NCBI GenBank assembly: GCA_958009085.1
Contig: OY253672.1
Location: forward strand, 186,001-250,000
DNA: 64,000 bases
Source of the DNA: Protoeuglena noctilucae
Lineage: Eukaryota
Direction of reading: 5' to 3'
Shown: positions 3,142 to 44,450 of the stretch, piece by piece
Layout: each line of letters begins with the position of its first letter
Position numbering within the stretch: position 1 is the stretch's first letter
Translations under genes and position numbers: made by a program
Notes under the pieces: generated by a model
What the model saw: the letters and a program-made list of their open reading frames with translations, nothing else
Told to the model about the DNA's origin: nothing
Databases searched by the model: none

Positions 3142-6100
3142 TCAACGACGTTTGTGAGCATGGTTGACAACGTTAACCAAGGAATGAACAATTCTTTTGA
3201 CCCCGAGGGTAAATCCGAGGACCAAGTACGTGACATTCATGACACGGGCAGCTGGCAAAATAACCTCAGTTAGCGCTAGCAAAAAAAATCTTTTCACCCC
3301 CCTCTTGCTGCTAATCTTGGTGCCCCGTACATGAACCTTCCCACCTTCCACGCGCCAAACTGCTTTGCTGTTAGAACACATCGCAACGCACCCACCATTC
3401 ATGTGAATAACACTGCCCTCGTCAAAACAGCACATGCCGCCATGCGCGCAGTCAGCGATCTGCACCTCGCGCAGCTCGGCGTGCCCGCCCTGTTGGCACG
3501 CAACCCCCTGCCTGCAGTCAGCGATGTGCACCTCTCGCAGCTCCGCCCCCCCCCCACGGTCACACGCCACCCCGTGCCCGTCCTTGCACCCCGTGATGCG
3601 CCCCCCCTGCACGACCGCCTGGGCGCCCCAGCCAGTGCAGCACACGCCGCTCAGCTTGCAGTCAGCCACCTCCACGCCATCGACCGTGACGTGCCCGTGG
3701 CCCTGGCACAGCACGCCGTGGCCCTCCATGGACCCCGAGATGCGCCCCCCCCGCACGACCACCTGGCTACCAGCCCCATGGCAGCGCACACAGCCCAGCT
3801 TGCAGTCGGCTATTGTTGTGCCCTCAACCTGCACCCTTCCTCTTTGAGAACATGCCACCCCATTTCCATCGCTGGATCCCGTGATGCGACCCCCATGCAT
3901 CGTCACGTGGCTACCCTGACCATAGCTGTACACGCCACTCTGCTTGCAGGCGACAACCTCCACATCCCGCAGCTTGGCGCACCCGCCCTGCTGGCATGCT
4001 ATGCCATGGCCCACCTTGGACCCCACGACGCGTGCTCTCTGGACGACTACCATACTTCCCGTGCCAGAGATAAACACGCCACACAGGTTGCAGTCAGCGA
4101 TCTCCACATCCCGCACTTCCGCCTGCCCACCATCCTGGCAAACCAACCCATCAGATGCCCTGGATCCTGCAATGCGCCCCCCCTGCACATCTACCCGACT
4201 CCCATGCCCCGTGCACATGACCCCCGTCTTAGGAGCGTCCTCCAAGCGCACGTGAACGAGTGCAGCATTGCCACCGCCGCCGCACCGCACGCCTGTGCCT
4301 ATCACCGTCATGCCCTCCAGCCGCAGCTCCGCACCCTGCTGCACTTGCAGGCCGTAGCCTGTGCCTAGCGGAGTGTCGGCAGCCCGCAGAGTGCCGTTGC
4401 GCACCGTTGTCACGACCCTATTCCCCACCACGATCTCCGCCGTCAGGCCCAGCTCGTCACCACCCAGGTCAATGCTGCCCCCCCTCTCCATCGCCTCCGC
4501 AAGCTCCTCCGCTGTCGACACAAGAGCTATCCCTTCCTGCAGAGCCAATCGCTGTCTGGTGATGCTCGCCTCCACATCCGCCCACTGCAGCCTCGCCTCC
4601 CGGATGGCAAACAGCCCCTCCGCCGCCTCCCACACCGCCCTCCGAAGCTCATCTGGCACCTTGCGTACCAGGTATGCCAACGCTTTCCGCCTATGCAAGG
4701 CTCTCTCTTGCTCCCGGAACATTGCCTCTGTTCCAAACAGGTCCGGCCGCCGCGGATTGCGCGTGCAGTGCGCCACATGATGATGCGCGTCCTCCCCGCA
4801 TTCCCCCAGGCACCACCTACACATAAACGCCCCGCAACCCCCTTCCGCCCTCGTGCAAGTCAGGGCCATGCACGCCTGGAAGTCCCCCACCATCGCCGCC
4901 CGCTTGCACCTCGGGCACCGAATCACGTTCAGCTCCTCCTGCAGCAGCTTGCAGTGCGCAGCCACCGCCTCCGGCCCTCCTGCTGCCTCCAGCTCCACGA
5001 TGCGGCTCCTCAGCTCCTCCAGCTCCCTCGCCCTCTCCGCCTGCTCGGCCTCTGCCGCATGCCGCCGGCTGGCATCCAGGAAGCCCCGCCGGTCCTCGTC
5101 CCCGGGAAGCTTAGCCATTACCGCTGCAGCTGAGAAGGCCCCCATGCACTCCAGCCCCGTGCAGTCCCTGCACCTAAGATCCCCCGCTGGGGTCGAGGCC
5201 GCCCGGCTCTCCGCCAGCGTCCCGACCTTGAGCGCCAGGCAATCGCTGCACACGTGGTGGGCGGCGCCTCCACTGCATGCCACAGCAACGCGAGACTCGA
5301 CCCGCTCCATGCATACACGACAGTCCTGGAGCCTGCGGGAGAATGCGAGGCCAAGCCATGCAGACACAAGCCCGGTGCACAGAGCAAGAAGGTCTCCCGC
5401 CCGCCTGGAAGCGCAATGCTCAAAACCAATTGCTATGAATGCATGCCCCTGCAGCGTCTAGGGAAAAAAATTCATCTCGCCAGCCTAGTCTAGCGAGCAA
5501 GCCCTCGCATACACCCCCGCCTCACCCGGACTCCCTCGCGGCCCTGAGCATGGCAGCCACGCCCGGCCGCTCCTCCGGCTGCTCCCTCAGCGCCCCCTGC
5601 AGCGCCGACCGCAGCGGCTCCGGCACCGACTCGGGCACCGTGGGGAAGCGCTGAAGGCCCACCACGTCCCTGTCGACCTCCCCATCGCCCTGGTCGCCGT
5701 GGGGCAGCTGCCCCGATGCCACGCAGCACAGCGTCGCTGCCACCGCGTACGCATCCGAGGCGGCTGTGATGCGCCCATTCCGCCACTCCGGCGGCATGAA
5801 GTCCTCACTGCTCATACCTGTCACCGTGGATCTGCCATAGCTCGGGCCGGCTCGGGGCATCGACTGCGGTGGGCGAGACCACCGGGGGCGGTGAGACCAT
5901 GCGGTGTGCGACGACTGCATTCAGTGACTGCATCCAAGATACCGCCGACCATGAAGCGACCCCGGCAAAGCACATCCGCCTCCGCGTCTGGCCGCCTCAC
6001 CCATGGCAAGCTCCCTATCGCATTCCCGACCACCGACGCCAGCCCGTAGTCCGCCAGCATCACGATGCCCCGCTCGTCGACCAGGGCGTTCCCCGGCGTG

Positions 6101-18007: not shown

Positions 18008-20975
18008 TTATCGGTTCTGGTGTCGGACGAAGGCCAGGGCGGCCCACGCGCAGAGGCCGAAGAAGACGACCCAGGACGCGAGGATGAGCATGTTTGCGTA
18101 CACGGGCTCGGTGATGTCGTAGAACTCCAGGGGGGTCATCGTGCCGAAGACGGGGGTGGTGACGCCCCGGAACTGATCCGCCATCACGGCGGCCCTGCGT
18201 CAAGTGCGGGTCATGCGTGCTGCGAGGGTGCGAAACCCGGCGCGGGGGTCCGGCATCGCAGGATTTGGCCGGCTCAGATTGCCACGCACATTCCGCACTC
18301 GCCAGGCATAGCGCATGAAGTCCAGGTACGAGATCCATCGGATGAAACCCGGGATGCTGTTCTGGTGGATGAGGAATCCGGCGAAGAACAGGTCGACGGT
18401 GATGAGCGTGGGGAAGAGCGCGTTGGCCGCCTCGAGGGTGCTGGTGGATGCGGCGATGAAGTAGGCGAGCGTCGTGGAGCACGAGAGGGCCAGGAAGTAG
18501 GCCATCCACACGATGACGAAGTGACCCTGGAGGCCTACGCTGAAGGAGAAGACGATGGTGGCCGCGCACGCCACGACCTGGGGCTCAGCCAAGAAGGGCC
18601 ATGGCTCAGCCGTGCACGGGAGGGTGAACGCAGCGCACCATGGCTCATCGCAGACAGGACGGCTCACCACAGACAGGATGGACTCCTCAACGACCTTGTT
18701 GAGGAGGTACAGGCCGGCCGTGTAGACGCCGTCGCTGCGCTCGCGGTAGTAGAGCGGACGCTCGATGACCAGCGTGGGGATGTATCTGCGGAGGGTCGCT
18801 GAGGATGCGGGTGGGTGCACACGCCCCGCCTGCCGCGCCCAGCACCCCGCGCCTCTCACATGGCTGCCCCGAACGACGGCTGAACCATCCACATGTAGAG
18901 CACGGCGGCCTGGGTGACGACGCGCGTCTGAGAGAGGCCAGTGCCCTCGTTCATGAACAGCAGAGCCGCCAGGACGGCCAGGAAGAGCTGCAGTGGCGAG
19001 GGCGCTGAGCGTTGCGCTGTCGCCACCCCACGCTGGCTGGCACGTGCTGCAACCATGCGTCCATTCGCGTACCTTGTTGAAGACGCGCGTGCCAACCCAT
19101 GAGGGGCTCATGTAAGCACTGACGGTGCGGTATCGGAAGAAGACCCAGAAGGCGTACCAGCGCGGCACGGTCATGGCAGACCCGCCCCGGGGGTCGTTCT
19201 TCAGCACCTCCGACACTGCGGGACGCGGGAGGCGCACGTGAGGACGCAAGACGCAGTCGCGCGCACATCGGGGAAGATACGGATCGTGCTGTGACTCGCA
19301 CCCGTTGTGCCCCGGACGTGCTCTCGTGCCCACCGCGCCCTCCTGCGGTTCTCCTGCGCGGGCACCGATGACGGCGCGAGTCAACCCCCCCCGCAGCCCT
19401 CCTGGTCCGCATGGAGACACAGGTGACGTCTCACCTCCGCCTTGGGACTACGCTCGTACGCTTGGACAAAGTCGAAGTCGCCGCTGCCGTCCGCCTGCTC
19501 CGCTGCTCCGTGCCGCGACCCCTTCGTGGCAATGCGCTTGGACCCCGTCGTCACTCGCACCACCAACTCCACGTCCGACTCCTGGGGCCGACGCTCGGGG
19601 AGGGCAACCGGCAGAGAGAAGAAGTAGTCCTGCACCGCTGCCCCAGCAGGGCCCGTGTAGATGACGCGGCCCCCGTAGAGCATCTGAGGGTAGGTGCGTG
19701 GCTACCATGGAGGTGACAGGCTGGGTCTGGGCAAGCAGAACGGCTGCATTCGTCTCCATCTCACCAAGAGCTCGTCGAAGAGGCAGAACGTGAACGCGGA
19801 TGGGCTGTGGATGGTCGAGCAGATGGTGACGCCGCTGCGTGCCAAGCGCTGCACCACCTGCATGACCTCGTCGGCCGTGAAGCTGTCCAGGCCAGACGTG
19901 GGCTGCGGGGATTCAAACAGTCGTCAAGTTGGCGACGCAGCTGCCGTTGATGATGCAGCTGCCTTGACCCTGGCACGTGCGCCCCCACCTCGTCGAGGAA
20001 GAGCACCCGGGGCTCCGTGATGAGCGCGATGCCGATGTTGACGCGCTTGGCCTGCCCCCCCGAGATGCCCCGCCGCAGGGGACTCCCGATGAGTGTGTCG
20101 GCCACGTGGCTCAGACCCAGGCGGTCCAGCATCAGGTCCACGGCCGACTGCTTGACCGCAGCGCACTGGCCTGAGAGGAGGAGCGCAGCAGGGGTGGCCA
20201 TCTCCGCACTCCCGCACTAGCAGTGGCAAAAGACGCCGCATCGTCCGCGCCGCTCACTGTGGGGTCGCTTCATGAACGCCTGGTACGCGAGCATCTCCCG
20301 CACCGTGAGCGTCGGCAGCAGCGTGTCCTGCTGCTCCACGTACCCGGTGTGACGGCGGAGGAAGCGCCCTCGGGGGCGCTCGCCCCCGTACAGAATGTCA
20401 CCCTCGATGCGTCCCACTGCGGAGGATGGAAAGGGCAATGCCATGCCTGTGTCCTCCTGTGGGGCTGCCACCCCATGTGCGCAGGAAGCACCAGCACCGC
20501 TTCCTGGCTGAGCCCTTCTCACCCGTCTTGCGGCCCGCCAGGACGTCCAAAAGCGTGCTCTTCCCGCTGCCGCTCGGGCCCATCAGCGCAGTCATTTTCC
20601 CCGCCTCCAGAATCCCCGTCACGTCCTCCAAAATCACAGACGTCTTGCGGCGGCCCTGCACGCTGTACCGCACACCCTCGAACGTCACCGTGAGCCCCGC
20701 ATCCTCCCGGCGGCTCCGCCCGGTGAAGTAGCGCTGCGACTCCCGGAACTGCTCCCGAGCCTCCTCGCCCTCCGTCACCATCCGGGTCAGGGCGCGGGAC
20801 AGGCCGCTCTTGACCCCCTGCAGGCCATCGCCCTCCCCCGCCTGGGCGTCCGAGGAGCCCTCGCCTCGTTCCTCGTCCGCGTCGCCGTGGACGCCCAACT
20901 CCAGCTCTGCTGACGCGGAAACGGGGCCCCATGCCCGTGCTTACGTATTACCTCCTTCCCGCACCGACGGGCCAT
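18008..20975 (-). CDS. ABCG (White-type) half transporter, NBD-TMD order
   Basis: Walker A GPSGSGKST, YVEQQD, signature GISGGQAKRVNIG, Walker B VLFLDE|PTSGLD, STIHSP, ERPLYYRER, hydrophobic TMD. Stop TAA at 18008-18010. Start approximate. Confidence 0.95.
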
Positions 20976-22487: not shown

Positions 22488-22690
22488 GGGAGAAAGTGCG
22501 CGCGAGGGGGCGCTAAGGCCAGTGACTGGAACAGCAGTCGCGAGCGGCGTCGCCGTCGACAGCGAAGGCCAGAGGACAACCGAAACGCGAGAGCAGCGCT
22601 TTTTGTTTTGCCAATGAGGATTCAAATAGATGACGGCTAGGGCACCGCTTCCTGTGGCAGCATGGACGTCCGCGCTCCTCTGAAACACTG

Positions 22691-23427
22691 CTAGCATGCA
22701 GGCTTTTGCCCCACCTGCGCCCCGAACAGGGGCAGCGCCGCCACGGAGGTGCGGTACCTGCTGTTGGGGTCCGCCTGGTCAGCGGACCCTGAGCTCCAGT
22801 TGGTCGAGTAAGCGACGTACAGCAACGTGTTGCTCTGGGGGTCGTAGATGCGGCGCAGCTTGACCGACTTGAAGAAGAGCGACTTCCGCTCCCTGAAGAT
22901 CTCCTCCCCCGCGGGACCGTACTTAATCGGCGCCTTGAAGGAGATGGGCCCCGTCTGGGCCACTGCTCGGGAGGGAGCGCTTCAAGCCGTGTCTCACTCG
23001 CGCGGCCACGCCATGCGTGGGCGAAGCGGGCGGGGCAGCTGCCGGCCTCACCAGTTATGGAGGTGGATGTGGGGTCCGTAAAGAAATCTTTGGCCAAACG
23101 GTCAGTTATGGGGCGCTCAATACTCGACAAAAAGACCGACACCCCCTCGACTGCAGGGTCCGGCACAGCATGCACGCGCACGGTGTCCTGGAAGAACAGG
23201 CCGCCCCGCGCCCCAAACTCGCCCACGCGACGGACCTGGCGGGGACCGGCGCCCTCCTCGGCCGCTCCCTCCCCCTCGGCGGCCCCGGGGGGCAGGGCCC
23301 AGCCTGCGACGTGATGCAGAGGCCTGTTCCCAGGAGGGCGCGGGGAGGCTGGCAGGCATGGGCGACAAAACGCACCTGCCGCAAGCGCACATCCCATCAC
23401 CCCCGCTACGGCAATGGCGCGCCTCAT
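22691..23427 (-). CDS. creA: CreA family protein
   Basis: VGEF..DTVRVHAVPDPAVEGV..S..DPTSTSITVAQTGPI..GEEIFRERKSLFFKSVKLRRIYD..NTLLYVAYS is the CreA signature. Hydrophobic N-terminus. Two GT-AG introns. May extend further 5'. Confidence 0.85.
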
Positions 23428-23784
23428 GACACAGCAAATGTTGGCACCCTGGGCGTCGAAAATGTGTCGTAACTCTGTTGGTTCTCGCCACTGTGACAGG
23501 AGGAGGAGCTGAGGAGGACTGTAGGAGGACAGGAGGAGAACCAGAGGACCGAAGTAACACCGAAGCAGCTGGCGTTTGGTCGCCAGCACGGGCCGGGGCA
23601 GTCCAGCCTTCGGCGGATATTCCTAGCACGCGACGATGAATCATCAATGAGTATATGCACCTCGGTGTGAGCAGACACTGCCTGGGCGCGGGGAAATCCT
23701 GCAGCGACAGCGTTTTGTTGACTGCTCTGCGGCTCCCTCGACGGCCAGCGATGGCTCGCCGACCGCCCGGCGGTAGATAGTCGC

Positions 23785-26700
23785 ATGTCGGTCTTGGTCA
23801 GGGACGTGGCCTGCCGGGGTTGTCCGGCGGAGCCCCGGGAGCTCCGGGAGCTGCCTGCACGCGCCCAAGCGGATGGGCGCCGCCGGCGAAGCCAGCGCCG
23901 GGATGTCCACGAGCATGTGCCTCATCAAAGAAGACGCATAGGGCTTCGCGAGGTGGCCGTGTGCGCCTCCGAGGGCGCCGAAGTAACGCCTGACATCCCC
24001 GCGCTGATCACGGCGTTGGCCGAAAATGACGAAGAGGCGAGTCCATTAACGCGCAACCGACGCATTGCGTGAGTCGCGTTGTGTCCACGGGGCCACCGTC
24101 ATATCATCCGTCTCTCTCCCCAGGCCGCCTTCCGCGTGGTGCCGTCCCTGCACGAGGCGCTCGCTCCCGTCGCCCGGGAGCACCCGGCGCTCCTCAAGCG
24201 GTACCAGGCCAATGTGCCGCCGCAAGTGTTCGACAGGCTCCTCCACATGGCGCGGGACCGGGGCTCCGCCGCCCCTCTCGAGCTGCTGCACCTCCTCTCG
24301 TACCGCCACGCTGCCCTCGCCACCCACGTCGTCACCCACGACCTGCCGCCCCTCGTGGCCCTCCTGGAGCCCCGAGCCACCCGCGGTGAGCGAGTGACAC
24401 CGCAGGGCCGCGGCGGCACTACTCCGTCCGTGATGCATGTACTCGTAAGAGCCCCGACCTCTCATCGCGGCCAACCCCCGGCCCTGCGCAGGGAGTGACA
24501 TGGTGGCGAGCGCTGCCCACGTCGCGTCATCCGTCGTGACGTACGCCGAGGAGGAGGCGGTGGTCGACGCGGCCCTGCGCACGGGGCTGGCGTCGCGAGT
24601 TGTGATGCTCCTGCACGGCAACGAGGGTGAGGGGCAGCGAGGCGCCTCCCCACCACGTGTTGCTCTGCCGCGCATGTGCCAAGGCCTTCCCTGCGCTCCC
24701 CCGCAGCTCTCCTCCTCGCCCCTGGCCGCTCCGTATCGTGTGGGTCCGCCACGCTGCTGCAGCGGCTGCTGGCCATCCTTCGCAACGTCGCCCTCAGCGC
24801 CACGCCGCAGCAGAGGGCGGACCTGCGGGCGTGCGGGGTCGGCGCGGCGCTGCGGCGGTGGCTGGGGCGGTGCACGGATCCAGGGGACAAGGTGAACGCG
24901 GCGCTGGGGCTGGCGGCGGTGGAGGAGGCGGACGAGGGGGCGGATGGGGCATCCGAGGGGGGCGCGGCTCGCACTGACGGAGGGGGCGCAGGGGCCAGTC
25001 ACGGGAAGCACGGGCGGCGAGGGAGCGGGAGCAGGGGCGAGGGGGCGGGGGAGCGGGACTGGGCGCGGCAGACGGTGTTGGACCTGGTGGCGCTGGATGA
25101 GTGGGACTTGGACGGGACTGGGGGCGGGGACATGAGGTGGGAGCAAGACGGGGGGATTGCGGTGGAGGGGACGGCAGCGAGCACATCGGCTCTGGCGGGA
25201 AAGGGGGCGGGGGCGGTCGAGGAGCGTGCGCCACAGAGGGGAGCTCGATGGCGGGGGCCAGAGAAGAGCGAGGCAGTGACGGGTGAGTGGAGGGGAGTGG
25301 AATGGGGGAATGGGTGTGAGCTGACAGAAAAGACGGCTGACTTGCATGTGACAGTCACCCCGCAGTGACGGATTAGATGATCGACGTCCTGGTGGCCGCC
25401 CTGCCCTCCTCTGCCACGGAAGCAACGTTCCTGGGCCAGGTGTATGTGGCGCCATGGAAGATTCTGCGTGGCATGTCGGCCCTCTGCGCCAGCGACGGGA
25501 ACAAGGACGCCCTGGTGGCGAGGGGGGCAGTGCCCGCGCTGTCGGCCGTGCTGGCGGCCCCGGACCTGGACCGGCAGGAGCGGGTGCGGGTGCACGGGGC
25601 GGGGGTGGTGTGGCAGCTGGCCTTCAGCGAGCGGGGGCGGCAGGCGGTGCTGGCCGAGCCGGGTCTCGTGGAGGCGCTGCGGTGAGGGGCGCTGCTAGTG
25701 GCAGGGGCGTCGCCTGCGCTAGCACGGGGCACCGGCCTTCCCGCCATCCTGCCTTCATCATGTCATGCGCGTTTGACCCCTTTGCTCATGCAGGTCCCTG
25801 TACCGTTCGGCCGAGTCCCCCGCCGTGCGCCGCGCCGCCGAGGGCGCCCTGTGGACGCTGGGGGAGGAGGCGGACGTGGAGGAGCTGTTCGAGGTGGCCA
25901 GGCAGCGGCCGCGGACGGACGAGGCGGACGGGCACGTGTTCATCAGCTACTGCTGGGACGAGCAGCGGATGGCGCTGCTGCTCAAGGCGGAGCTGGAGAA
26001 GCTGGGGTACAGGCGAGGGCGGGGGGATGGGGTGCAGGAGACGGGTGAGCTGGCCGTGCATGAGACTCTGACGACGTGACGCGAAGCCCCCGGGTGTGGC
26101 TGGTGCACCCAGGACGTGGATGGACTTGGAACAGATGCAGGGGAGCACGCTGCAGGCCATGGCCGAGGGGATCGAGGAGGCCGTCGTGGTGAGGGTGGTG
26201 GCGTGACCTCCGACTGCCCTGTCGCGCCTCGCTGGGCCGCGGTCACCCACGCCGCGCCCCTCCTCCACCCCAGGTGGTGCTGTGTCTGTCGCGGGGTTAC
26301 AAGCGCAGCCAGGCGTGCCGCACAGAGGCCGAGTACGCAGCGACGCTGAAGAAGCGGCTGGTGCCGGTGCGCATGGAGGCGGGGTTCGCGCCGACCGGGT
26401 GGCTGGGTGCCATGGTGGCGGGCAAGGCCGTGTTCCAACTGGCAGACCCCAGGAAGGCGGCAGACGTGGCGGGGCTGCTGGCGCGGCACATCGGGGACGT
26501 GGCGGTGGCCCGGGAGCAGGAGCGCTTCCTGCACCGGTGAGCGCGCCCGCGGTGGCCCTTCCGCCCCCTCTCGCATGGCCGCGTCGCCACGGTCCCTGCG
26601 GTCGCTCTCGCAGGGCGGTGGCGGGGACGCAGCGGGAGGACCAGGCCCATCAGTGGACGGAGGAGGAGGTGGCGGTGTGGCTCCACCACATTGGCCTGGG

Positions 26701-26878
26701 CGGTCACGCGGGGGCCTTCCGGCGCCAGGGCATTGACGGGGCTGCCCTGGGGGGCATGGCGCGCTTCATGCGCGCGGACGCCCGGTACGCCTTGGAGCTG
26801 ATCAGGACGGAGCTGAGCATCGAGCGGGTGGGAGAGCTCTTGCGGCTGTGCGAGGGCCTCCATCAGCTCTTAGACTGA
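23785..26878 (+). CDS. ARM-repeat + TIR (TIR_2-type) + SAM domain protein
   Basis: ARM-like helices (ILRGMSALCASDGNKDALVARGAVPALSAVL; AAEGALWTL). TIR: HVFISYCW..TWMDLEQMQGSTLQAMAEGIEEA..LCLSRGYKRSQACRTEAEYA..LVPVRME..GWLG. SAM: WTEEEVAVWLHHIGL..AFRRQGIDGAAL. Confidence 0.9.
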
Positions 26879-27017
26879 CACAGATTCGTGATGCCAGCCT
26901 TGCTTGCCTTGCCAGTGCCGTGAGACGGAGCGCTAGGCGTCCTTTCGTGACCGCATCAGCCTGAAAGCGGATATCCGCTAGCAACACTTTCGAATCCGCG
27001 TGCCTTGTGAGTGAAGA

Positions 27018-28755
27018 ATGGACCATTTGCTCGCAAGCCCGCCCACCCCGCCCGCCCCGCCGGGGGTCGCGCGGGCCGCGGCGCCGGGCTCCGCGACGGT
27101 CGCGCGCTTACGGTACATCGCGGTCGTCGCGGCTCCCGACGTCGGCTCCGCGCTCTCCGCGTCGCTCGAGCCTGCCGCGCGCAACAAAGGCACCGACCGC
27201 TTTCAGCCCCTTCCCCAAGAAGCGGTCGGCAGCGGCATGACCCGGGACGACTTCCTGGAGTTTCTGGAAGGTGCGTGGCACTGTGTACGTGCGTTGAGGC
27301 CCGCCGGCAAGGCTCTCGACAGCGCACGCGCCGGAGATCCTTGCTGCACGGTCGACGCAGGGCTTCCCGACCCACCCGCGACGCTGATGCAGGACGCGGA
27401 CATCACGCGCGGAGAAACGGCAAATGACGAATGGAGCGAGCTACTCGTCGCATGCGGGACCGCCGCGGCCGCTGGCTTCCTCGGCCTCCTGGCCTTCGCA
27501 TGGAAACGCGCCCAAGAGCTCGAGGCGCAGCTTGGCCGCATTGGCCGAGCGCCCGTACGCGAGCGTGAGGCGCCAGCGGAGCGCGCGGAGGTGTCGACGC
27601 CGATCCGGGAGCCGCGCGCGGTCGGGCTCGCCGTGACGCGCATGCTGGAGGACCTGGACCAGAGGGTCAGCAGCGGGCCCCCGCTGGGGGAGCCGGGCGC
27701 GGGCATGGCGGGCCCGAGGAAGGGGCGGGAGCGGCGGGGTGCCGGGGGCACGGAGGGCGGGCCGCGGCGTCCCAGGAGGGGGCGGGCGGGGCGGGGCAGC
27801 GGTGCGCCGGGCGTGGGGCGCCGGGAGGGGTTGGAAGGCGGGCAGGGGACGGTGGTCGTTGCGGACACGAACACCTACATGTGCGAGTTGCGGGCCGCGC
27901 GGCAGCTGCTGGAGAGGCCGGACGGGTGAGGGGAGCGGAGGGGGCTGCCTGGGGTTAGGGTGGGGCCGTCGCCGTTGTTTCATGCCGTCCGCTGGGCCCG
28001 CAGGCCGAGCGTCGTGGTTCCTGCGACGGTGGTGGCTGAGCTGGACGGTCTGCGTCACTCGCCCAACCCCGAGACGAGCTACAGCGCCCGCATTGCGCTG
28101 GCGGCCATTGAGGAGAGCGTCGGGGGGGCGCTGATGGGGTGGCTGCGGTCGGCGAGGGCGGCGCAGGTGGGGCAGCGATCGCCGGGCTAGGCTGCTGGGG
28201 CTGTGGGTGCGAGGACGTGACCCAGTGACTCTGCCTGGCCCATGGCCGCAGGCGGAGGGGGGCGTGAGGATTCCTTTCCTGGCACGCCTGCCCGAGGAGG
28301 GGCGAGCGCGGGGCGGCACGTGGAGGCGCGGCGTGGCGGTGGGACCGTCGCGTGGGGCTGGGGGCGAGGGCCCAGGCGCGGACGTGCCAGGGTGGGGCGC
28401 AGGGCGGGAGCGGGACGGGGACCGGGAACTGTTGGAGGTGTGCCTGGCGATCCGGGAGGCGGGGGGGCGAGCGGGGGAGGAGGAGGGGCACCTGGGAGGG
28501 TGGGAGCGTGTGCTGCGTGGCGCGGAGGGCGACGGTGAGGGGGGCGGCAAGAGGGGCGCGTCGGGCCGGGAGCTTGGAGACGCGGGGGCGGTGGTGGCCA
28601 TCCGCGTGCCGGGACCCGACGCCGCGGGGCACGGGGAGCCTCCCGCAGTGCGCGTGGTGCTGCTGACGGCGGACCGGGCCCTGCAGCTGTCGGGGGTGCT
28701 GGAAGGGATCCAGGCAATGCCCATTGCCGCGGGACGGGATGGGGCGCCGGGGTGA
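27018..28755 (+). CDS. PIN-domain (PIN_4/Swt1-like) ribonuclease with N-terminal hydrophobic helix
   Basis: VVVADTN, VVVPATVVAELDGL, DRELLEVC, VVLLTADRAL. Hydrophobic LLVACGTAAAAGFLGLLAFAW followed by KR. Start could be 27238. Confidence 0.8.
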
Positions 28756-32998: not shown

Positions 32999-35900
32999 AT
33001 GGCGCTGCTGAGGACGCGGGGGCCTCGCGTCCGCCTGATGGCGGCGCTGGCCATGCTCCTCTGCATGCTGTTGACTGCGCAGGCCGCCCTGATGGCCATC
33101 GACTTGGGGACGGATACCATGAAGGTGCAAGTCGCTGTGCGTTCGTCTGTACATGCGCTCGGCGCGCACGCCGTCCTCTTAAGCGTGTCCCAACCTGCCC
33201 CGCTCGCCCCCCTGCTGCAGATTGCCATGGTGGGCAAGCGTGACCGCAAGCCGGGCGACTCGCCCATCGAGATCGTGCTGAACGAGGGCGGCTCGCGGAA
33301 GACCCCGACGGGCGTGGCCTTCGCCCGGGGCGAGCGCGTCACGGGGGGCAACCTCGCCACCGTGAGGAGCAAGTTCCCGCAGGTGGGGGCGCGCGTCGCT
33401 CAGCGAACAGCTGTGGGGTGTTTGGACGCCCGTGTGGACGCTTCTTGCTGGCTTGGCCTTTCATTTCACCCGGCCAGTGAGATGCGGTGTGCCTAGCCTG
33501 CACTACGCCTCCTCGCCCTCCCTGCAGGACACCTACACGCGGATCATGGACATGCTGGGTCGGCAGTACGACGACGAGGACCTGCGGGCCAAGATGGCCG
33601 CCACGCTCCGCCCCTTCGAGATCGTCGCCTCGGACAACCGAGGCCGGGCGGGCGTGGTGTCCAAGGAGGGGCCCATGACTGCCGAGGAGCTCCTGGGCCA
33701 CGTGCTCGTGTACGCCAAAAACCTGGCGACGGGTGCGGGCCCGCCTGCGTTGCAGCTTATGCGTCCCCAGTGCCAGCGAGGTGTCTTGGCCGTCATTCGT
33801 GCCACCACCGGACGACCCCTCTCGCCGCCCCCGCAGACGTGAACGGCGGGGAGCCCGTCAACCAGGTCACGCTCGTCGTGCCGCCCCACTTTGGCCACGC
33901 AGCGCGGCAGGCCGTCCTGGACGTGAGGGGCCATGGCAGCAGGATGCCCCTGGCGCTTGCCTCCCCTCCCCGCCCCTCCCGTCTCACCGCGCGCCCCTCC
34001 TCCCTTTCTCCCAGGCCGCCGAGCTCGCGGGCCTCAAGGTGCTGAGCATCGTCAACTCCCACGCGGCGGCGGCGCTGCGGTACATGGTGCAGGGGGTGTA
34101 CGTGCCGAGCACCTCGAAGAGGGAGGCGGAGCGGGTGCTGTTCTACGACATGGGTGCGGGTTCGACGGTGGTGGCGCTGGTGGAGTACACGACGGCGGCC
34201 GGGGGCGTGGGGGAGGCGGTGGTGCGGGACGTGGCCTGGGACGCGGACCTGGGCGGGGAGGCGCTGGAGATGGCGCTGGTGGACGACCTGGCCCGGCGCT
34301 TCAACGCCGACCACGTCGCCGAGCTGGCCGGGCGCGACATCCGCGACGACGCCAAGGCCATGCTGCGGCTGCAGTCGGCGTGCCGGCGGGCCAAGGAGGT
34401 GCTGTCGGCCAACACCGAGACAGTGGTCTACATCGACGAGTTCCTGGGGGACACCCCCCTGACTTACAAGCTGGCGCGCGCGGACCTGGAGGCCGCCGTG
34501 GCGCCCCTGCTGGCCCGTGCCCAGGAGCCCCTGGCGGCCATCGTGGCGCGCAACGCGCTGCGGGCCGAGCAGCTGGCCAACTTTGAGCTCCTGGGCGGCG
34601 GCACCCGCGTGCCCGGCGTGGTGACGGCCATCTCCGCGGCGCTCCCCGGCGCCGACGTCTCCCGCCACCTCGACTCGGACGAGGCCGTGGTGTGGGGCGG
34701 GGCCATGTTTGCAGCCAACTCGAGCTCCTCCTTCAAGATGAAGCGCTTCCTCTTCACGGACGGCGCCCCGCACGCCTACGACCTCGTCACGTGGCCCGCG
34801 GGGCAGAGCAGCGCCACGCACCCCGTCGCCGGCCTCATGCGCGACTGGGAGGCGCGGGCGGCGGCCGCGGGGCCGGAGGGGGAGGCGCCGCCGCCCCCGG
34901 TGCGCCGCGTGCTGCCGCGCATGTTCCCCACGGGCCGCGGCCGGCAGGTGGTGCTGTTCGACGCCGCGGACGGCATGGCCATCGAGGTGGTGGCGTCCGA
35001 GGAGGGCAACCCCCAGGGCCGCCCGCGGGACCTGGCCAAGCCCGTGCTGGGCCGGTGGTTCCTGGGGGGCCTGGCGGCGGCCGAGGCCGCGCACGGCGCC
35101 GACAGCATCGAGAAGGTGACCGTGACGGTGCGGGTGGACCACGGGGGCATGGTGCGCGTGACGTCCCCCACGGCGCACGTGCGGACGGTACACAAGGTCG
35201 AGAAGAGAGTCTTGGTGGAGGAGGAGGGGGAGGGGGAGGGGGAGGGGGAGGAGGCGGCGACGGGCGCTGGCGCTGGGGCGCCGGGGTCGTCGCCGGGCGC
35301 GGAGGGGGAGGGGCAGGGGGCGGAGGGCGCCGAGGGGGCGTCGCGGCCGAAGAGGCGCGTGTACAAGACGGTGACGGTGGATGAGCCGGCGGTGGAGCGC
35401 GTGGCGCTGGAGCTGACGGGGGGCGTGCTGGGCGGGGAAATGGACCGCGCGACGTGGGCGTCCGTGACGGCGCGGTTCGGGGCGATCGAGGAGCGGGAGG
35501 CGGTCAAGCACCGCGTGCTGAGCCTGCAGCACCGCCTGGAGACGGACCTGTTCGCGTGGATGGACCACGTGGGCGGGGGCGACGCGCACGACTACGCGAC
35601 GGCGGCGGAGCGGTCGGCCATCCAGTCCTTCCTGGCCGACCTGGAGGAGTGGCTGTACGACGAGGGCATGGACGAGACGGACCCCGCCGTGCTGCAGGGG
35701 CGGCTGGACGCGCTGCACGAGGCGGTGCGGGGCCCCCGGACGCGGATGCGGGAGGCGCAGGAGCGGTTGTTCGTGGTGCCGGAGGTGCTGGCGCTGGCGG
35801 ACGAGGTGGAGGCGGAGGTGGAGGGGTGGGAGGAGAGCCGGCCGTGGCTGGGGCGGGACGAGCGGGAGGAGGTGCTGGAGGAGGCGCGGGGGCTGCGGGA

Positions 35901-36117
35901 GTGGGTGCAGGCGGTGGCGGACGCGGCCAAGGGGCAGCCGCGGGACGCCGACCCGGCCGTGACGGTGGCGGAGATGGTGGGGCGGGGGGCGGCCCTCGAG
36001 AGGCACCGTGACAAGCTGGCGCGGAGGCAGAAGCCCAGGGAGGCGCCCCGCGAGGAGGGGCCGGGGGAGGAGGGGGGCGCGGGGGACGCGGACGGCGGGG
36101 CGCACGAGGAGCTGTGA
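32999..36117 (+). CDS. HYOU1: ER-lumenal HSP70/HSP110-type chaperone (GRP170/HYOU1, HSP70-17)
   Basis: Signal peptide, AIDLGT, IVLNEGGSRKTP, FYDMGAGST, AKEVLSAN, LLGGGTRVP, HLDSDEA, EEWLYDEG. C-terminal HEEL ER-retention signal. Confidence 0.95.
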
Positions 36118-42705: not shown

Positions 42706-44450
42706 GTGACGAGACTGCGCTGGCGAGTCTGCGTGCTGCTGTCGTTGAGCCTGTCCTCCGCTCCTTGCACCGCGTTGCCGAAGAGAATCTTGAGCCTTGC
42801 CTCAGGGTCTTTCGTGCCTCGAGGACCGGGCGGAGCTGGACAAGTTCTTGCAGAAGTTCGTCCCGCGTAAGCAGGCGAGGCCGGGGCGCCAGCTAGGGGC
42901 CAATCGACTGTATCTTGGCCACGCCGCGTCGCGTCCCACGCAGTACTTGGCCCCTGCGCAGGAGAAAGCCTGCGGGCACCCACCCGGCGCTTGCTGTGGA
43001 AAGAGTGGAGCACATTGCAACGGACGGGTGGAGGACAGCCTGCCCAGCCGGGCAGGCGATGCAGTGGGCCCTGGCGAGGTGGACCGCGCCATCAGTCCGA
43101 GGGCGCCCGCCCCCGAAGCGCATTGAGAGGCTGATGAGCAAGCTTCATGGAGGAGATGGCAGCCCCGGTGCCTGGGTGCCCTCGTGGCGCAGGCGGCAAC
43201 TGGCGGGAGAGGCGGTGGGGGAGGCCGCTGCTGCTGGGGGCGTGCCCCGACCGCTGGGCCCAGGCGACGCCGCGGCGCCCCCGGGGAGGCGATCGTCGTC
43301 ACGGCCGTCGTCGGCCACTGACCGCCGTGGCTCCCATCGCAGCCCCTCCGCCCGGAGTCGCAGTGCGAGTCGGTCACGCACGGGCGCTGCATCCTCCCTC
43401 CACGTGAGCACGTGCCGCCGTGGGTGGCCCCCGCTGAGCGTGACGCGGCCTTGGCAGGCGTCGGCGCCGACAGGAAGCGGCGTTTCCAGCCCCCGACGCC
43501 TCTGCTGTGCCCCGCAGTCACTGCGCCGATCGTTGTCTGCCGCGCTCACCGCCCTGGCTTCGCCCCCGCCGCTGCCGGACTCGGCTCGCGCGTGCCTCCG
43601 CGACCCTAGAAACGTGCTCTCCGACACTGCCGACCTGGCGCTGGCGTCCCGGCTGGGGTACACCCGGGTGTGGGCTGCCCGGGGCCTGCTGAGCAGCGGG
43701 GGGCACGAGGTGGCCAAGTCGGCCATCGCGGCGCACAGGGAGGGGCGGGGGGCCTCCAAGGGCGTGGCGCATGAGGAGGGAGCACTGCGGGGCCTGGGGG
43801 CGGTGGCGGAGGAGCGGGAGGCAAGCGGGGAGGCGACGGTGGGGCAGGGGAGGGCGGACGGCGAGGGCGGGCAGGCGCCGCCGGCCACGCCGCCGCTGCG
43901 CACGGGCGACCGTGCGATGGGGTGGGAGGAGCTGACGACGCTGGTGCGGGAGGGGTCCGAGGCGTCCCTGGGGCGGCTGGTGCGCACGGAGGAGTGCACG
44001 CAGAGGTACCGGCGGGCGCGGGCGGAGGCGCTCGAGTCCTTCGCGACGGTGTCGGACCGCGTCCTGTCGCGGCAGCTGGGGTTCGGGGTGGCGGTGGACG
44101 GCGCGACGGGGAAGCTGGTGGCGGTGGTGGACGGGGACGGCGGGGCGCTGGCTGGGGCGCTGCGTGCGCTGGACGGGGGCCGGTACTGCGAGAGCCTGCG
44201 GGGCGTACGGGTGGCGTGGAGCGAGAACGAGTTCCCGTACGCGTTTGAGTGCGGGGTGGAGCACCACTGCATCTGGTGCACGCGGCCCCTGACCGAGGCG
44301 GAGGTGGCGGCGGTGGTGGCGGCCGAGCGCGCGGGGATGGAGGCGGTGCACTGGGTCAACCCGCCGTCGCTGCAGAGCGTGCGGGCCGTGTGGCACGCGC
44401 ACGTGGCCTCGCGGGCGGGGCCAGGGGCGGGCGACGAGGGGCCATCTTGA
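42706..44450 (+). CDS. DUF3605 (GIG1-like) protein with long N-terminal extension (start uncertain)
   Basis: WEEL..LGRLVR..Y, ENEFPYAFECGVEHHCIW, WVNPPSLQSVRAVWHAHV in 43918-44410. Confidence 0.8.

Follow-up and report, generated by a model that had tools for sequence, protein, structure and literature searches.

Does one gene of the green alga Protoeuglena noctilucae join ARM, TIR and SAM domains in a single SARM1-like enzyme, and can this copy of the gene still make it? The locus lies on the forward strand of the window, the 64,000-nucleotide stretch of contig OY253672.1 that was analysed, in which a preliminary description had read an ARM-TIR-SAM gene with an intact TIR catalytic Glu. The window also holds a DNA ligase exon and an HSP70-like exon; the named best matches of the ligase exon are chlorophytes and land plants, in agreement with the green-algal origin suggested earlier.

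A transcribed gene of nine exons

We compared the predicted gene model with contigs from runs X1 and X3 of one marine metatranscriptome study that match the window with 0 mismatches. These contigs confirm seven of the eight introns, two of which are GC-AG; as assembled sequences they would leave rare isoforms hidden and do not show transcript starts. Run X2 yielded only unspliced contigs over introns 3, 4, 5 and 8 and is thus uninformative on splicing. The features of the locus are as follows, where "profile" denotes the family profile built from 15 relatives.

23785..24036, + strand: exon 1, Arg-rich, with the predicted start; joint to exon 2 seen in run X3 RNA
24037..24123, + strand: intron 1, GC-AG, RNA-confirmed
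24124..24385, + strand: exon 2, N-terminal ARM region; profile positions 116-172, E 5e-4; GC3 0.93
24386-24491, + strand: intron 2, prediction only, the sole intron without RNA confirmation
24492..24626, + strand: exon 3, ARM region; weak colinear profile match at positions 192-210, E 3.2; GC3 0.89
24627-24706, + strand: intron 3, RNA-confirmed
24707..25282, + strand: exon 4, ARM region to about 24927; profile positions 247-301, E 5e-3
24928-25282, + strand: G-rich low-complexity insert in exon 4, about 118 residues, missing from relatives (unmatched in the alignment)
25283..25365, + strand: intron 4, GT-AG, seen in one X1 RNA contig
25366..25681, + strand: exon 5, ARM repeats, with an ATG at 25377; profile positions 319-414, E 3e-17
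25374-25376, + strand: in-frame TAG that ends a 411-codon frame, directly 5' of ATG 25377
25682-25793, + strand: intron 5, RNA-confirmed
25794..26012, + strand: exon 6, last ARM repeat, linker, and first TIR strand and helix (from about 25933); profile positions 417-492, E 4e-15
26013..26112, + strand: intron 6, GC-AG, RNA-confirmed in X1 and X3
26113..26188, + strand: exon 7, central part of the TIR domain; profile positions 492-518, E 5e-10; aligned in alignment A3
26189-26273, + strand: intron 7, RNA-confirmed
26274..26536, + strand: exon 8, C-terminal half of the TIR domain, containing the putative catalytic Glu codon (26325-26327); profile E 8e-28
26537-26613, + strand: intron 8, RNA-confirmed
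26614..26878, + strand: exon 9, SAM domain, with the TGA stop at 26876-26878; profile E 7e-10

The frame begins at an ATG read from the sequence at 23785, a predicted start, and one RNA contig spans 23671-24001. The exon 3/4 joint is visible in X1 RNA, a single X1 contig connects exons 5, 6, 7 and 8, and an X3 contig carries exon 8 spliced to 26613-26999, which extends the 3' UTR to at least 26999. The exon 4/5 joint is carried by one 221-nt X1 contig with a 14-letter overhang; those 14 loose letters are unique in the window at 25268-25281, and the remainder corresponds to 25365-25571. A 10-bp direct repeat flanks intron 4, with copies at 25273-25282 and 25362-25371. Contigs link exons 4-5, 5-6-7-8 and 8-9 and so connect ARM, TIR and SAM exons.

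The RNA joints of introns 1 (24034>24122) and 6 (26009>26110) each leave four ambiguous letters, and GC..AG borders result only from a +2 shift in the first and a +3 shift in the second. All eight model introns end in CAG, and none recurs elsewhere within the window when searched for as an introner. GC3 is 0.89-0.99 across the exons other than exon 1 and the insert. Exon 1 lies lower (GC3 = 0.74) and has no homology to relatives; the insert has a GC3 of 0.81 and is 55% G, and it could be partly intronic, as no spliced RNA contig lies over it.

ARM, TIR and SAM regions

The ARM assignment rests on homology, namely the profile match in exons 2-6 together with significant Arm matches at the same place in relatives. 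The window's own exons gave no Pfam Arm match up to E 1 and no Arm or HEAT family at E 0.1 (HEAT_2 in exon 6 reached E 0.11), and the profile matches exons 2-9 in colinear order. In the algal relative L002, the stretch homologous to exon 5 scores 49.1 bits against Pfam Arm. Exon 2 is 25% identical to the pedinophyte protein P0002 over 72 aa, and exon 4 is 36% identical to the C. reinhardtii protein P0008 over 72 aa. A structural model of the Gonium relative (pLDDT 90.0, computed from alignment A2) displays an ARM solenoid at residues 1-346, a TIR domain at 360-490 and a SAM domain at 515-590, and its fold matches include designed ARM proteins (1e-7), beta-catenin and SARM1. The ARM-like repeats of the preliminary description are supported by way of relatives.

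The TIR domain is spread over three exons (about 25933-26012, 26113-26188 and 26274-26536), as described before, with the FISY motif beginning at 25939 in exon 6 and SQACRTE in exon 8, where GAG at 26325-26327 encodes the Glu. Pfam TIR_2 (PF13676) matches exon 6 at profile positions 1-25 (14.6 bits, E 0.046) and exon 8 at positions 54-107 (25.5 bits, E 2e-5); exon 8 alone is below the gathering cut-off of 28, which applies to a whole protein, a rough sum of the two exon scores of this intron-split domain is 40.1 bits, and relatives score 50-88 bits. Exon 8 alone found only chance ribosomal-protein matches among PDB sequences and no match among longer database proteins, where a full-length L002 query succeeded. 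The Glu and its surrounding motif are kept in all 17 rows of A3 that cover the Glu, and the window differs from the family motif in one place, a Lys to Arg change four residues before the motif Cys.

In a search of the TIR profile against PDB sequences, the best matches among solved TIR structures were CRISPR-associated TIR 1 (Cat1, 1.1e-7) and RPS4 (1e-4), with SARM1 at 1.5e-3, and the Glu column coincided with the Glu of Cat1 and RPS4. The Glu of L002 also aligns with the TIR Glu of C. elegans tir-1 in a SARM1/tir-1 chimera, although the aligned stretch is weak (6.1 bits); the human SARM1 residue given in the PDB title of 7cm7 is E642A. We built a TIR tree by a quick method from 87 of 91 candidate rows (130 columns), dropping rows with fewer than 90 matched profile positions. 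The window TIR sits on a long branch and in no well-supported set of this poorly resolved tree, and we therefore draw no conclusion on ancestry or transfer.

The last exon encodes the SAM domain that had been described, beginning with a Trp at 26654. Exon 9 scores 30.1 bits for SAM_1 and 26.9 bits for SAM_2, above the respective cut-offs of 23 and 20.5, and its model is a helical bundle (pLDDT 90.1) that matches the SAM domains of Shank2, DGK-delta, Scm and SARM1 with probability 1.00 and TMt up to 0.83; the best structural matches are SAM domains, none of them at E 0.001. A four-copy prediction scored 0.46, compared with 0.02 for the best of three controls. Of 30 proteins whose solved structures are pairs of one chain, 21 attain that mark; among 23 solved as single chains, none does. 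Contact agreement between the runs was at least 92%, with a partner pLDDT of at least 79. The predicted contact is asymmetric, bringing residues 37-67 of one copy against residues 52-83 of the next, and may be a recall of solved SAM polymers, of which the tool itself warns.

A family shared by green algae and invertebrates

The combination had been called unexpected in an alga, a view that the database relatives contradict. ARM, TIR and SAM occur together in 23 of 80 of them by the precomputed Pfam column, including uninterrupted proteins of six named chlorophyte species: C. reinhardtii (XP_001689753.1), Gonium pectorale (GPECTOR_3g203), Volvox africanus, Astrephomene, Haematococcus and Pedinophyceae sp. 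YPF-701. Uninterrupted members also lie on many marine metagenome contigs; all 21 metagenome ORFs that we scanned carry TIR_2, 14 have a SAM match and 12 combine ARM, TIR and SAM. Two C. eustigma proteins considered as ARM-only relatives (P0021, P0022) were set aside; they end just inside the TIR domain, at the window's exon 6/7 boundary, and are probably truncated gene models. Our literature searches found no published function for the chlorophyte proteins, some of which bear the automatic UniRef name ADP-ribosyl cyclase/cyclic ADP-ribose hydrolase.

The window copy is colinear with the chlorophyte proteins over ARM, TIR and SAM and shares their Glu motif and C-terminal end. Its identities to P0008 and P0002 are 29-36% for the ARM exons, with the 25% of exon 2 noted above, 44-57% for the TIR exons and 35-41% for the SAM exon. 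It differs from them in its TAG, its G-rich insert and its long TIR branch, whereas the relatives have a single frame.

The suggested link to invertebrate ARM-TIR proteins is upheld, with relatives in molluscs, echinoderms (a brittle star) and a tunicate. These carry ARM repeats directly N-terminal of TIR_2 and share the Glu motif, at 29-42% identity to L002 over 38-79% of its length, but a SAM domain after the TIR domain appears only as a sub-threshold match in three of nine named animal proteins. We take these ARM-TIR proteins to be among the invertebrate "evolutionarily conserved TIR-domain-containing" proteins. Proteins of that name are mentioned in PMC6321704. In the TIR survey by Toshchakov and Neuwald 2020, the invertebrate ARM-TIR proteins fall in group 18, where chlorophyte, cnidarian, mollusc and echinoderm TIRs stand together (PMC7075850).

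An in-frame TAG divides this copy

Translation of the spliced model meets stops at codons 412 and 788 and no others, for 787 codons in all. The first is the TAG at 25374-25376, which is present in the DNA and in the third record of RNA contig X1 (0 mismatches). The domain order ARM-TIR-SAM of the preliminary description is therefore retained, and its single open frame from 23785 to 26878 is not. Because the TAG stands in spliced RNA, ordinary decoding of the observed RNA gives no single full-length protein; the mRNA holds one frame of 411 codons for the ARM part and another of 375 codons for an ARM remnant of about three repeats followed by TIR and SAM.

When the spliced product was aligned with 11 relatives, the TAG column held Gln, Glu or Asp, the four residues 5' of the TAG and the Met 3' of it remained aligned, and Met 25377 fell opposite Met, Leu, Ile or Val. 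The column was taken from a profile search and a script alignment, which we preferred because MAFFT misplaced the window's exon fragments in the 53-row alignment A2. The TAG lies between ARM repeats and is one base off CAG or GAG. All 11 relatives have a single continuous frame, from which the window copy departs. Environmental RNA of 2016 carries this TAG, placing the allele beyond a culture, although that sample is perhaps not independent of the genome source. TAG as a sense codon was also considered; a scan of coding-like frames in the window found one TAG and one TGA, a weak test that gives this idea no support.

Taken together, we judge it somewhat more probable than its opposite that this nine-exon gene is a transcribed member, broken by a TAG, of a conserved eukaryotic ARM-TIR-SAM family whose proteins would act as NADases. 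The likeliest state of this copy, which we put at a little short of an even chance, is a recently disabled or strongly down-tuned allele. Strong codon bias in both halves and the lack of any other internal stop fit a working gene and a very recent break equally well.

One alternative that we consider unlikely is that the gene still yields a full-length protein of about 780 residues, either by read-through of the TAG or by a minor splice form that joins a donor after 25275 to an acceptor at 25376/25377 and so removes the TAG in frame. The sequence offers a phase-0 GT donor at 25276 and an AG at 25375-25376, and the coding-type GC3 of both halves, the absence of further internal stops and the continuous frame of 11 of 11 relatives would all suit such a product. 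The sole contig across the joint uses 25282>25366, however, and the alternative acceptor is a TAG after a purine-rich stretch, unlike the CAG of eight out of eight model introns. The stop scan, weak as it is, does not point to decoding of TAG as an amino acid, and we know of no recognised read-through context 3' of 25374-25376.

A second alternative, also with only a minor share of our belief, is a working split gene in which the 375-residue ARM-remnant-TIR-SAM protein is translated alone, either because transcription starts internally or because ribosomes re-initiate at the ATG abutting the TAG, while the 411-residue ARM fragment acts in trans or lies idle. The TAG and ATG are adjacent and in frame, and the downstream frame is intact with its catalytic motif and a confident SAM fold. 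Against this, Met 25377 is a conserved internal residue of the family rather than a new start, and re-initiation after a frame of 411 codons is inefficient in eukaryotes. No contig begins in intron 4 or exon 5, though contigs cannot show starts. Polycistronic nuclear transcripts are known in green algae (PMC7896298, PMC11291117), and the bicistronic genes treated in the latter are reported to be depleted of ATG before the second frame. The present locus has the opposite pattern, with 14 ATG triplets upstream of ATG 25377 in the spliced RNA, which also disfavours leaky scanning.

A predicted NAD+-cleaving mechanism and its relation to SARM1

The activity of TIR enzymes requires clustering for the active site to form. 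In an uninterrupted family member, the C-terminal SAM domain would gather TIR domains by head-to-tail self-association, the TIR domain would cleave NAD+ by means of the conserved Glu, giving NAD+ depletion or a cyclic ADP-ribose-type signal, and the long ARM solenoid directly N-terminal of the TIR domain would be the regulatory or sensing part. Judged by its motif, the TIR domain is probably NAD-cleaving. We infer enzyme activity, regulation by ARM, and any role in stress, immunity or cell death, and the oligomerisation-activated NADase action of the preliminary description would follow the same scheme.

Many animal TIR domains act as adaptors, and the family TIR could instead be a protein-contact scaffold like those of animal TLR adaptors, not an enzyme. 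Our searches found no enzyme assay for any family member, and an adaptor or regulator role has been proposed for invertebrate members of conserved TIR families (PMC6321704). The Glu and its motif are nevertheless conserved from algae to echinoderms, and NADases of proven activity have their catalytic Glu in the same alignment column. In addition, a 2026 preprint (10.64898/2026.04.20.719644) describes Glu-dependent cADPR-type products for many eukaryotic TIRs, algal ones included; a member of the present family may be among its 154 assayed TIRs. We accordingly regard the scaffold as rather improbable. Even less credible, in our estimate, is a two-part SARM1-like enzyme in which the TAG-ATG couples termination of the 411-residue ARM "sensor" to re-initiation of the 375-residue ARM-remnant-TIR-SAM "executor" and the ARM fragment holds the NADase in check in trans; were it true, the regulatory and catalytic halves would be separate chains made in a set ratio from one mRNA.

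The likeness to SARM1 holds for the domain set. ARM, SAM and TIR domain types occur in one protein, the Glu stands at the corresponding TIR position, the window's SAM fold resembles SARM1 SAM1-2 (TMq 0.64), and by analogy the logic is likely the same, with SAM clustering, ARM controlling and TIR cleaving NAD+. It does not extend to domain order, which is ARM-SAM-SAM-TIR in SARM1 and ARM-TIR with one SAM here, or to the TIR domain itself, which resembles bacterial Cat1 and plant RPS4 at least as closely as SARM1. Those two proteins in turn lack ARM and SAM, carry other partner domains and are part of the immunity of bacteria or land plants. As far as sequence can tell, the gene is not a SARM1 orthologue, since the order differs and the TIR domain is no closer to SARM1. 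An animal SARM1 orthologue or recent SARM1 transfer into algae with rearranged domains might be read from the three common domain types, the SARM1 chains that rank fourth among PDB fold matches of the Gonium model and the few SARM1-like TIRs in green algae noted in a preprint (PMC13142454), but it is highly improbable given the single-SAM order, the higher scores of Cat1 and RPS4, a whole-protein match to the SARM1/tir-1 chimera of only E 3.4e-4, closest animal relatives that are mollusc, echinoderm and tunicate ARM-TIR proteins and not SARM1, and the separation of chlorophyte TIRs (group 18) from SARM1 (group 24) in the TIR survey (PMC7075850).

Implications

The interrupted frame is a caution, as the window copy is ill suited to expression work until its product has been shown to exist. 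Public databases already contain the family under automatically assigned names, and wide-ranging surveys and activity screens of TIR domains are in progress, which makes the locus a lead into an unstudied family and not a surprise. If members of the family are Glu-dependent NADases, this would be an old enzyme common to green algae and many invertebrates, in which the three modules of SARM1, the axon-death enzyme, are wired in another order. Because the Chlamydomonas orthologue is uninterrupted, it would offer a tractable system for studying control by ARM and clustering by SAM, in which one could also explore whether algae use NAD+ cleavage in their responses to stress or viruses.

Gene Model and Transcription

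We read the gene model from 23000–27600 on the plus strand, where the features named in the preliminary description (the ATG at 23785, FISY, SQACRTE with its Glu codon, and a SAM-like last exon) are all present in the sequence. Contigs of three RNA runs from one marine metatranscriptome study (X1, X2, and X3) and of X5, probably source DNA, were compared with 22800–27800; parts of the stretch were found in four runs of that study, and the whole stretch in four runs labeled with one organism.

Exons and introns of the ARM-TIR-SAM gene, with matches to a family profile (15 non-redundant relatives, 723 positions)
23785–24036, +, exon 1, ATG at 23785
24037–24123, +, intron 1, skipped in RNA contigs, GC-AG
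24124–24385, +, exon 2, profile 116–172
24386–24491, +, intron 2, predicted, outside the RNA joints seen
24492–24626, +, exon 3, profile 192–210 (weak)
24627–24706, +, intron 3, skipped in RNA contigs
24707–25282, +, exon 4, profile 247–301, ends with G-rich insert 24928–25282
25283–25365, +, intron 4, skipped in RNA contigs, GT 25283–25284, AG 25364–25365
25366–25681, +, exon 5, profile 319–414
25682–25793, +, intron 5, skipped in RNA contigs
25794–26012, +, exon 6, profile 417–492, contains FISY
26013–26112, +, intron 6, skipped in RNA contigs, GC-AG
26113–26188, +, exon 7, profile 492–518
26189–26273, +, intron 7, skipped in RNA contigs
26274–26536, +, exon 8, profile 518–596, SQACRTE, Glu codon GAG 26325–26327
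26537–26613, +, intron 8, skipped in RNA contigs
26614–26878, +, exon 9, profile 625–715, C-terminal SAM-like, stop TGA 26876–26878

When each exon was scanned separately against Pfam, exon 6 matched TIR_2 positions 1–25 (14.6 bits), exon 8 matched TIR_2 positions 54–107 (25.5 bits), and exon 9 matched both SAM_1 (30.1 bits, cut-off 23) and SAM_2 (26.9 bits, cut-off 20.5); no Arm or HEAT family was found at E 0.1 or better in the window's own exons. The composition of exons 2, 3, and early exon 4 (GC3 0.89–0.93, GC2 0.45–0.58) resembles that of exons 5–9. The G-rich insert (55% G, GC3 0.81), which falls between profile positions 301 and 319, may be partly intronic, since it is absent from relatives and covered by no spliced contig.

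Contigs of X1 and X3 match the window with 0 mismatches while skipping seven intervals. Exons 5, 6, 7, and 8 are linked in a single X1 contig of 547 nt, exon 8 is spliced to 26613–26999 in an X3 contig of 464 nt, and one 221-nt X1 contig carries the exon 4/5 joint; X2 contigs over introns 3, 4, 5, and 8 are all unspliced and uninformative on splicing. The overlapping spliced contigs place the ARM, TIR, and SAM exons on one transcript chain and thus rule against separate transcripts, an outcome that the preliminary description had considered. For 24037–24123 and 26013–26112, GC..AG is the sole shift within the ambiguity that gives intron-like ends, so that GC-AG ends account for two of the seven introns verified by RNA, which is a high share. 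Intron 4 is bordered by a direct repeat of 10 bp (25273–25282 and 25362–25371; at most 6 bp at the other seven introns) and may have been gained through insertion or duplication; the window contains no second copy of it.

The RNA-covered leader contains a short upstream frame at 23751–23780 (ATG, with TAG nine codons on), just before the predicted start at 23785. RNA of the divergent neighbor extends to 23502, so the promoter region common to both genes is under about 170 bp. The downstream gene, in which no Pfam family was found, starts about 15 bp past the point where RNA coverage of the TIR gene's 3′ UTR ends. Among the other genes, the DNA ligase exon has chlorophytes and land plants as its named best matches, in agreement with the proposed green-algal source.

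Neighboring genes in the window
664–1770, DNA ligase I exon
3142–5457, −, beta-helix/NosD-like protein exon
18200–19447, −, ABC-2 transporter exon
22513–23622, −, divergent upstream neighbor, CreA-domain match, RNA-verified introns 22963–23051 and 23303–23374
27014–27929, +, downstream gene, verified intron 27269–27358
33679–36117, HSP70-family protein exon
42897–44450, DUF3605 exon

An In-Frame Stop Divides the Spliced Reading Frame

The first 14 letters of the 221-nt X1 contig are not those at 25351–25364 but lie, uniquely in the window, at 25268–25281, and the contig continues over 25365–25571 with no mismatch. The mRNA joint is 25282 to 25366, after which the exon 4 frame reaches a TAG at 25374–25376, followed directly and in the same frame by the ATG at 25377 that opens the frame of exons 5–9. 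Translation of the spliced model meets just two stops, at codons 412 and 788 (frames of 411 and 375 codons); the single open frame previously proposed for 23785–26878 is therefore broken by this TAG in spliced RNA, and the RNA contigs seen cannot yield a full-length ARM-TIR-SAM protein.

The exons upstream of the TAG belong to the same ancestral gene as exons 5–9. In a profile search, exons 2–9 are colinear with the family profile; exon 4 shares 36% identity with the Chlamydomonas reinhardtii relative and exon 2 shares 25% with the relative from Pedinophyceae sp. YPF-701, each over 72 residues. Conservation is lowest in the N-terminal part, as exons 1–4 alone recovered none of 62 related metagenome loci by tblastn at E 1e-3. 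When the spliced product was aligned with 11 relatives, seven of these had Glu at the stop column, three had Gln, and one had Asp, with the four preceding residues and the following Met kept in register. Hence, the TAG seems to have arisen from CAG or GAG by a single base change in a continuous ancestral frame, and the ATG at 25377 appears by the same alignment to be a conserved internal Met, not a purpose-made start.

We favor, at slightly less than even chances, a recently disabled or strongly down-tuned allele, although both halves are intact apart from the TAG and environmental RNA also carries it, which argues against simple decay. Production of a full-length protein through rare splicing or read-through is unlikely. 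Whatever the upstream splicing, RNA with 25374–25379 uninterrupted has a stop ahead of the TIR-SAM frame, and the sole splicing escape is a joint exactly at 25376/25377 from a donor in phase 0 (for example, the GT at 25276); an acceptor there would end in TAG after a purine-rich stretch, and all eight model introns end in CAG. Separate translation of a TIR-SAM protein is similarly doubtful. With 14 ATG triplets ahead of it in the spliced RNA, the ATG at 25377 is unlikely to be reached by leaky scanning, whereas the second frame of algal bicistronic genes is preceded by ATG depletion (PMC11291117). The remaining probability lies outside these three readings.

Predicted Structures

Folded with 14 relatives, exon 9 forms a helical bundle (pLDDT 90.1) whose best PDB matches are the SAM domains of Shank2, DGK-delta1, Shank3, and Scm, and SARM1 SAM1-2 (probability 1.00, TMt up to 0.83). 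All fall short of E 0.001, which is common with domains this small. The model thus folds as a SAM domain, whose absence would have counted against the preliminary description. Exon 9 modeled in four copies gave a score of 0.46, with 0.02 as the highest among three controls; the former mark was attained by 21 of 30 solved same-chain pairs and 0 of 23 single chains in a calibration on two copies, not four; the runs show at least 92% contact agreement and partner pLDDT of at least 79. The predicted interface is asymmetric, like that of head-to-tail SAM polymers, and the score may reflect memory of solved SAM polymers. The model of the Gonium relative (pLDDT 90.0) comprises an ARM solenoid (1–346), TIR (360–490), and SAM (515–590), and matches designed armadillo proteins, beta-catenin, Vac8, and SARM1 chains.

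The TIR Domain and Its Relation to SARM1

TIR NADases are established among SARM1, plant TIRs, and bacterial TIRs. We aligned the window's three TIR exons with 16 relatives, and the motif around the Glu is kept in all rows that cover it, with one Lys-to-Arg change in the window. Against PDB sequences, the TIR profile ranked Cat1 (1.1e-7) and RPS4 (1e-4) above SARM1 TIR (1.5e-3), with the Glu column aligned to the Glu of Cat1 and RPS4; the Glu of L002, a metagenome locus, aligned with that of the C. elegans tir-1 TIR in a SARM1/tir-1 chimera. These alignments and this ranking suggest a TIR of enzymatic type by motif, not specifically SARM1-like. The proposed likeness to SARM1 thus holds for the domain parts and probable logic, but not for family membership. 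A TIR tree built by a quick method from 87 rows and 130 columns was poorly resolved, with the window TIR on a long branch nearest L001-type, L002-type, and pedinophyte rows and in no well-supported set, and we therefore draw no conclusion on ancestry versus transfer.

An ARM-TIR(-SAM) Family in Algae and Animals

An exon 8 scan of metagenome contigs gave the 62 loci, in most of which the counterparts of exons 5–8 are contiguous and intron-free; L002 and L001 are single frames of 556 and 653 residues. Pfam, run on 21 locus ORFs, found TIR_2 in all 21, a SAM match C-terminal of TIR in 14, an ARM-type family in 17, and all three in 12. L034–L057, from one metagenome sample (GC 0.26–0.31), comprise more than 20 distinct SAM-less paralogues in which ARM-TIR is followed by a non-SAM tail, one with ankyrin repeats N-terminally; they look like the product of one low-GC organism.

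With L002 as the query, a database search yielded 80 proteins, 34 with TIR_2 and SAM and 23 with ARM, TIR, and SAM (precomputed Pfam column). All three domains occur together in six named chlorophytes, Pedinophyceae sp. YPF-701, Gonium pectorale, Astrephomene gubernaculifera, Volvox africanus, C. reinhardtii, and Haematococcus lacustris, which removes the supposed oddity of this alga; several of these proteins are auto-named “ADP-ribosyl cyclase/cyclic ADP-ribose hydrolase” in UniRef. In a protein atlas, L002 adjoins Chlorophyta-labeled clusters with TIR_2, Arm, and SAM_2; mollusc ARM-TIR clusters score level with these (0.96), and SARM1 clusters slightly lower (0.94). Two Chlamydomonas eustigma neighbors (P0021, g3744; P0022, g3746), probably truncated gene models, end a few residues past the exon 6/7 boundary position, which hints at a shared intron position.

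Nine named animal relatives (Amphiura, Haliotis, Aplysia, Nucella, Babylonia, Solemya, Arion, Clavelina, and Mya) carry TIR_2 with or without ARM, and a fresh scan gave sub-threshold SAM matches C-terminal of TIR in three of the nine. In the protein of the brittle star Amphiura filiformis (P0051, residues about 359–468), the Glu motif of the TIR nearly matches that of the algal relatives, and the TIR is followed by a stretch resembling SAM_3 (19.2 bits, below cut-off), so the full order may be older than green algae.

Discussion

Toshchakov and Neuwald assign seven TIRs of chlorophytes to group 18, together with TIRs from cnidarians, molluscs, and echinoderms; this is the one eukaryotic TIR group with diverse architectures, and SARM1 falls in group 24 (PMC7075850). 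Johanndrees et al. find algal TIRs outside the land-plant groups and leave them aside (PMC9806590), and a 2026 preprint reports a few SARM1-like TIRs in green algae (PMC13142454). Another 2026 preprint describes Glu-dependent cADPR-type products from many eukaryotic TIRs, including 3′cADPR from a C. reinhardtii TIR (E264) whose clade is described with dinoflagellates, chytrids, and haptophytes (10.64898/2026.04.20.719644). That TIR is probably a different protein from the C. reinhardtii ARM-TIR-SAM member, whose Glu is at about residue 337. Our literature search found no paper describing or testing the green-algal ARM-TIR-SAM architecture.

Judged from the anatomy, SAM would drive assembly, the assembled TIRs would form the active site around the Glu, and the ARM solenoid would regulate or sense. 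ARM-TIR-SAM is a conserved, catalogued, unstudied family and not a peculiarity of one alga, and we think that, by analogy with TIR NADases, its members are probably clustering-activated NAD+-cleaving enzymes.
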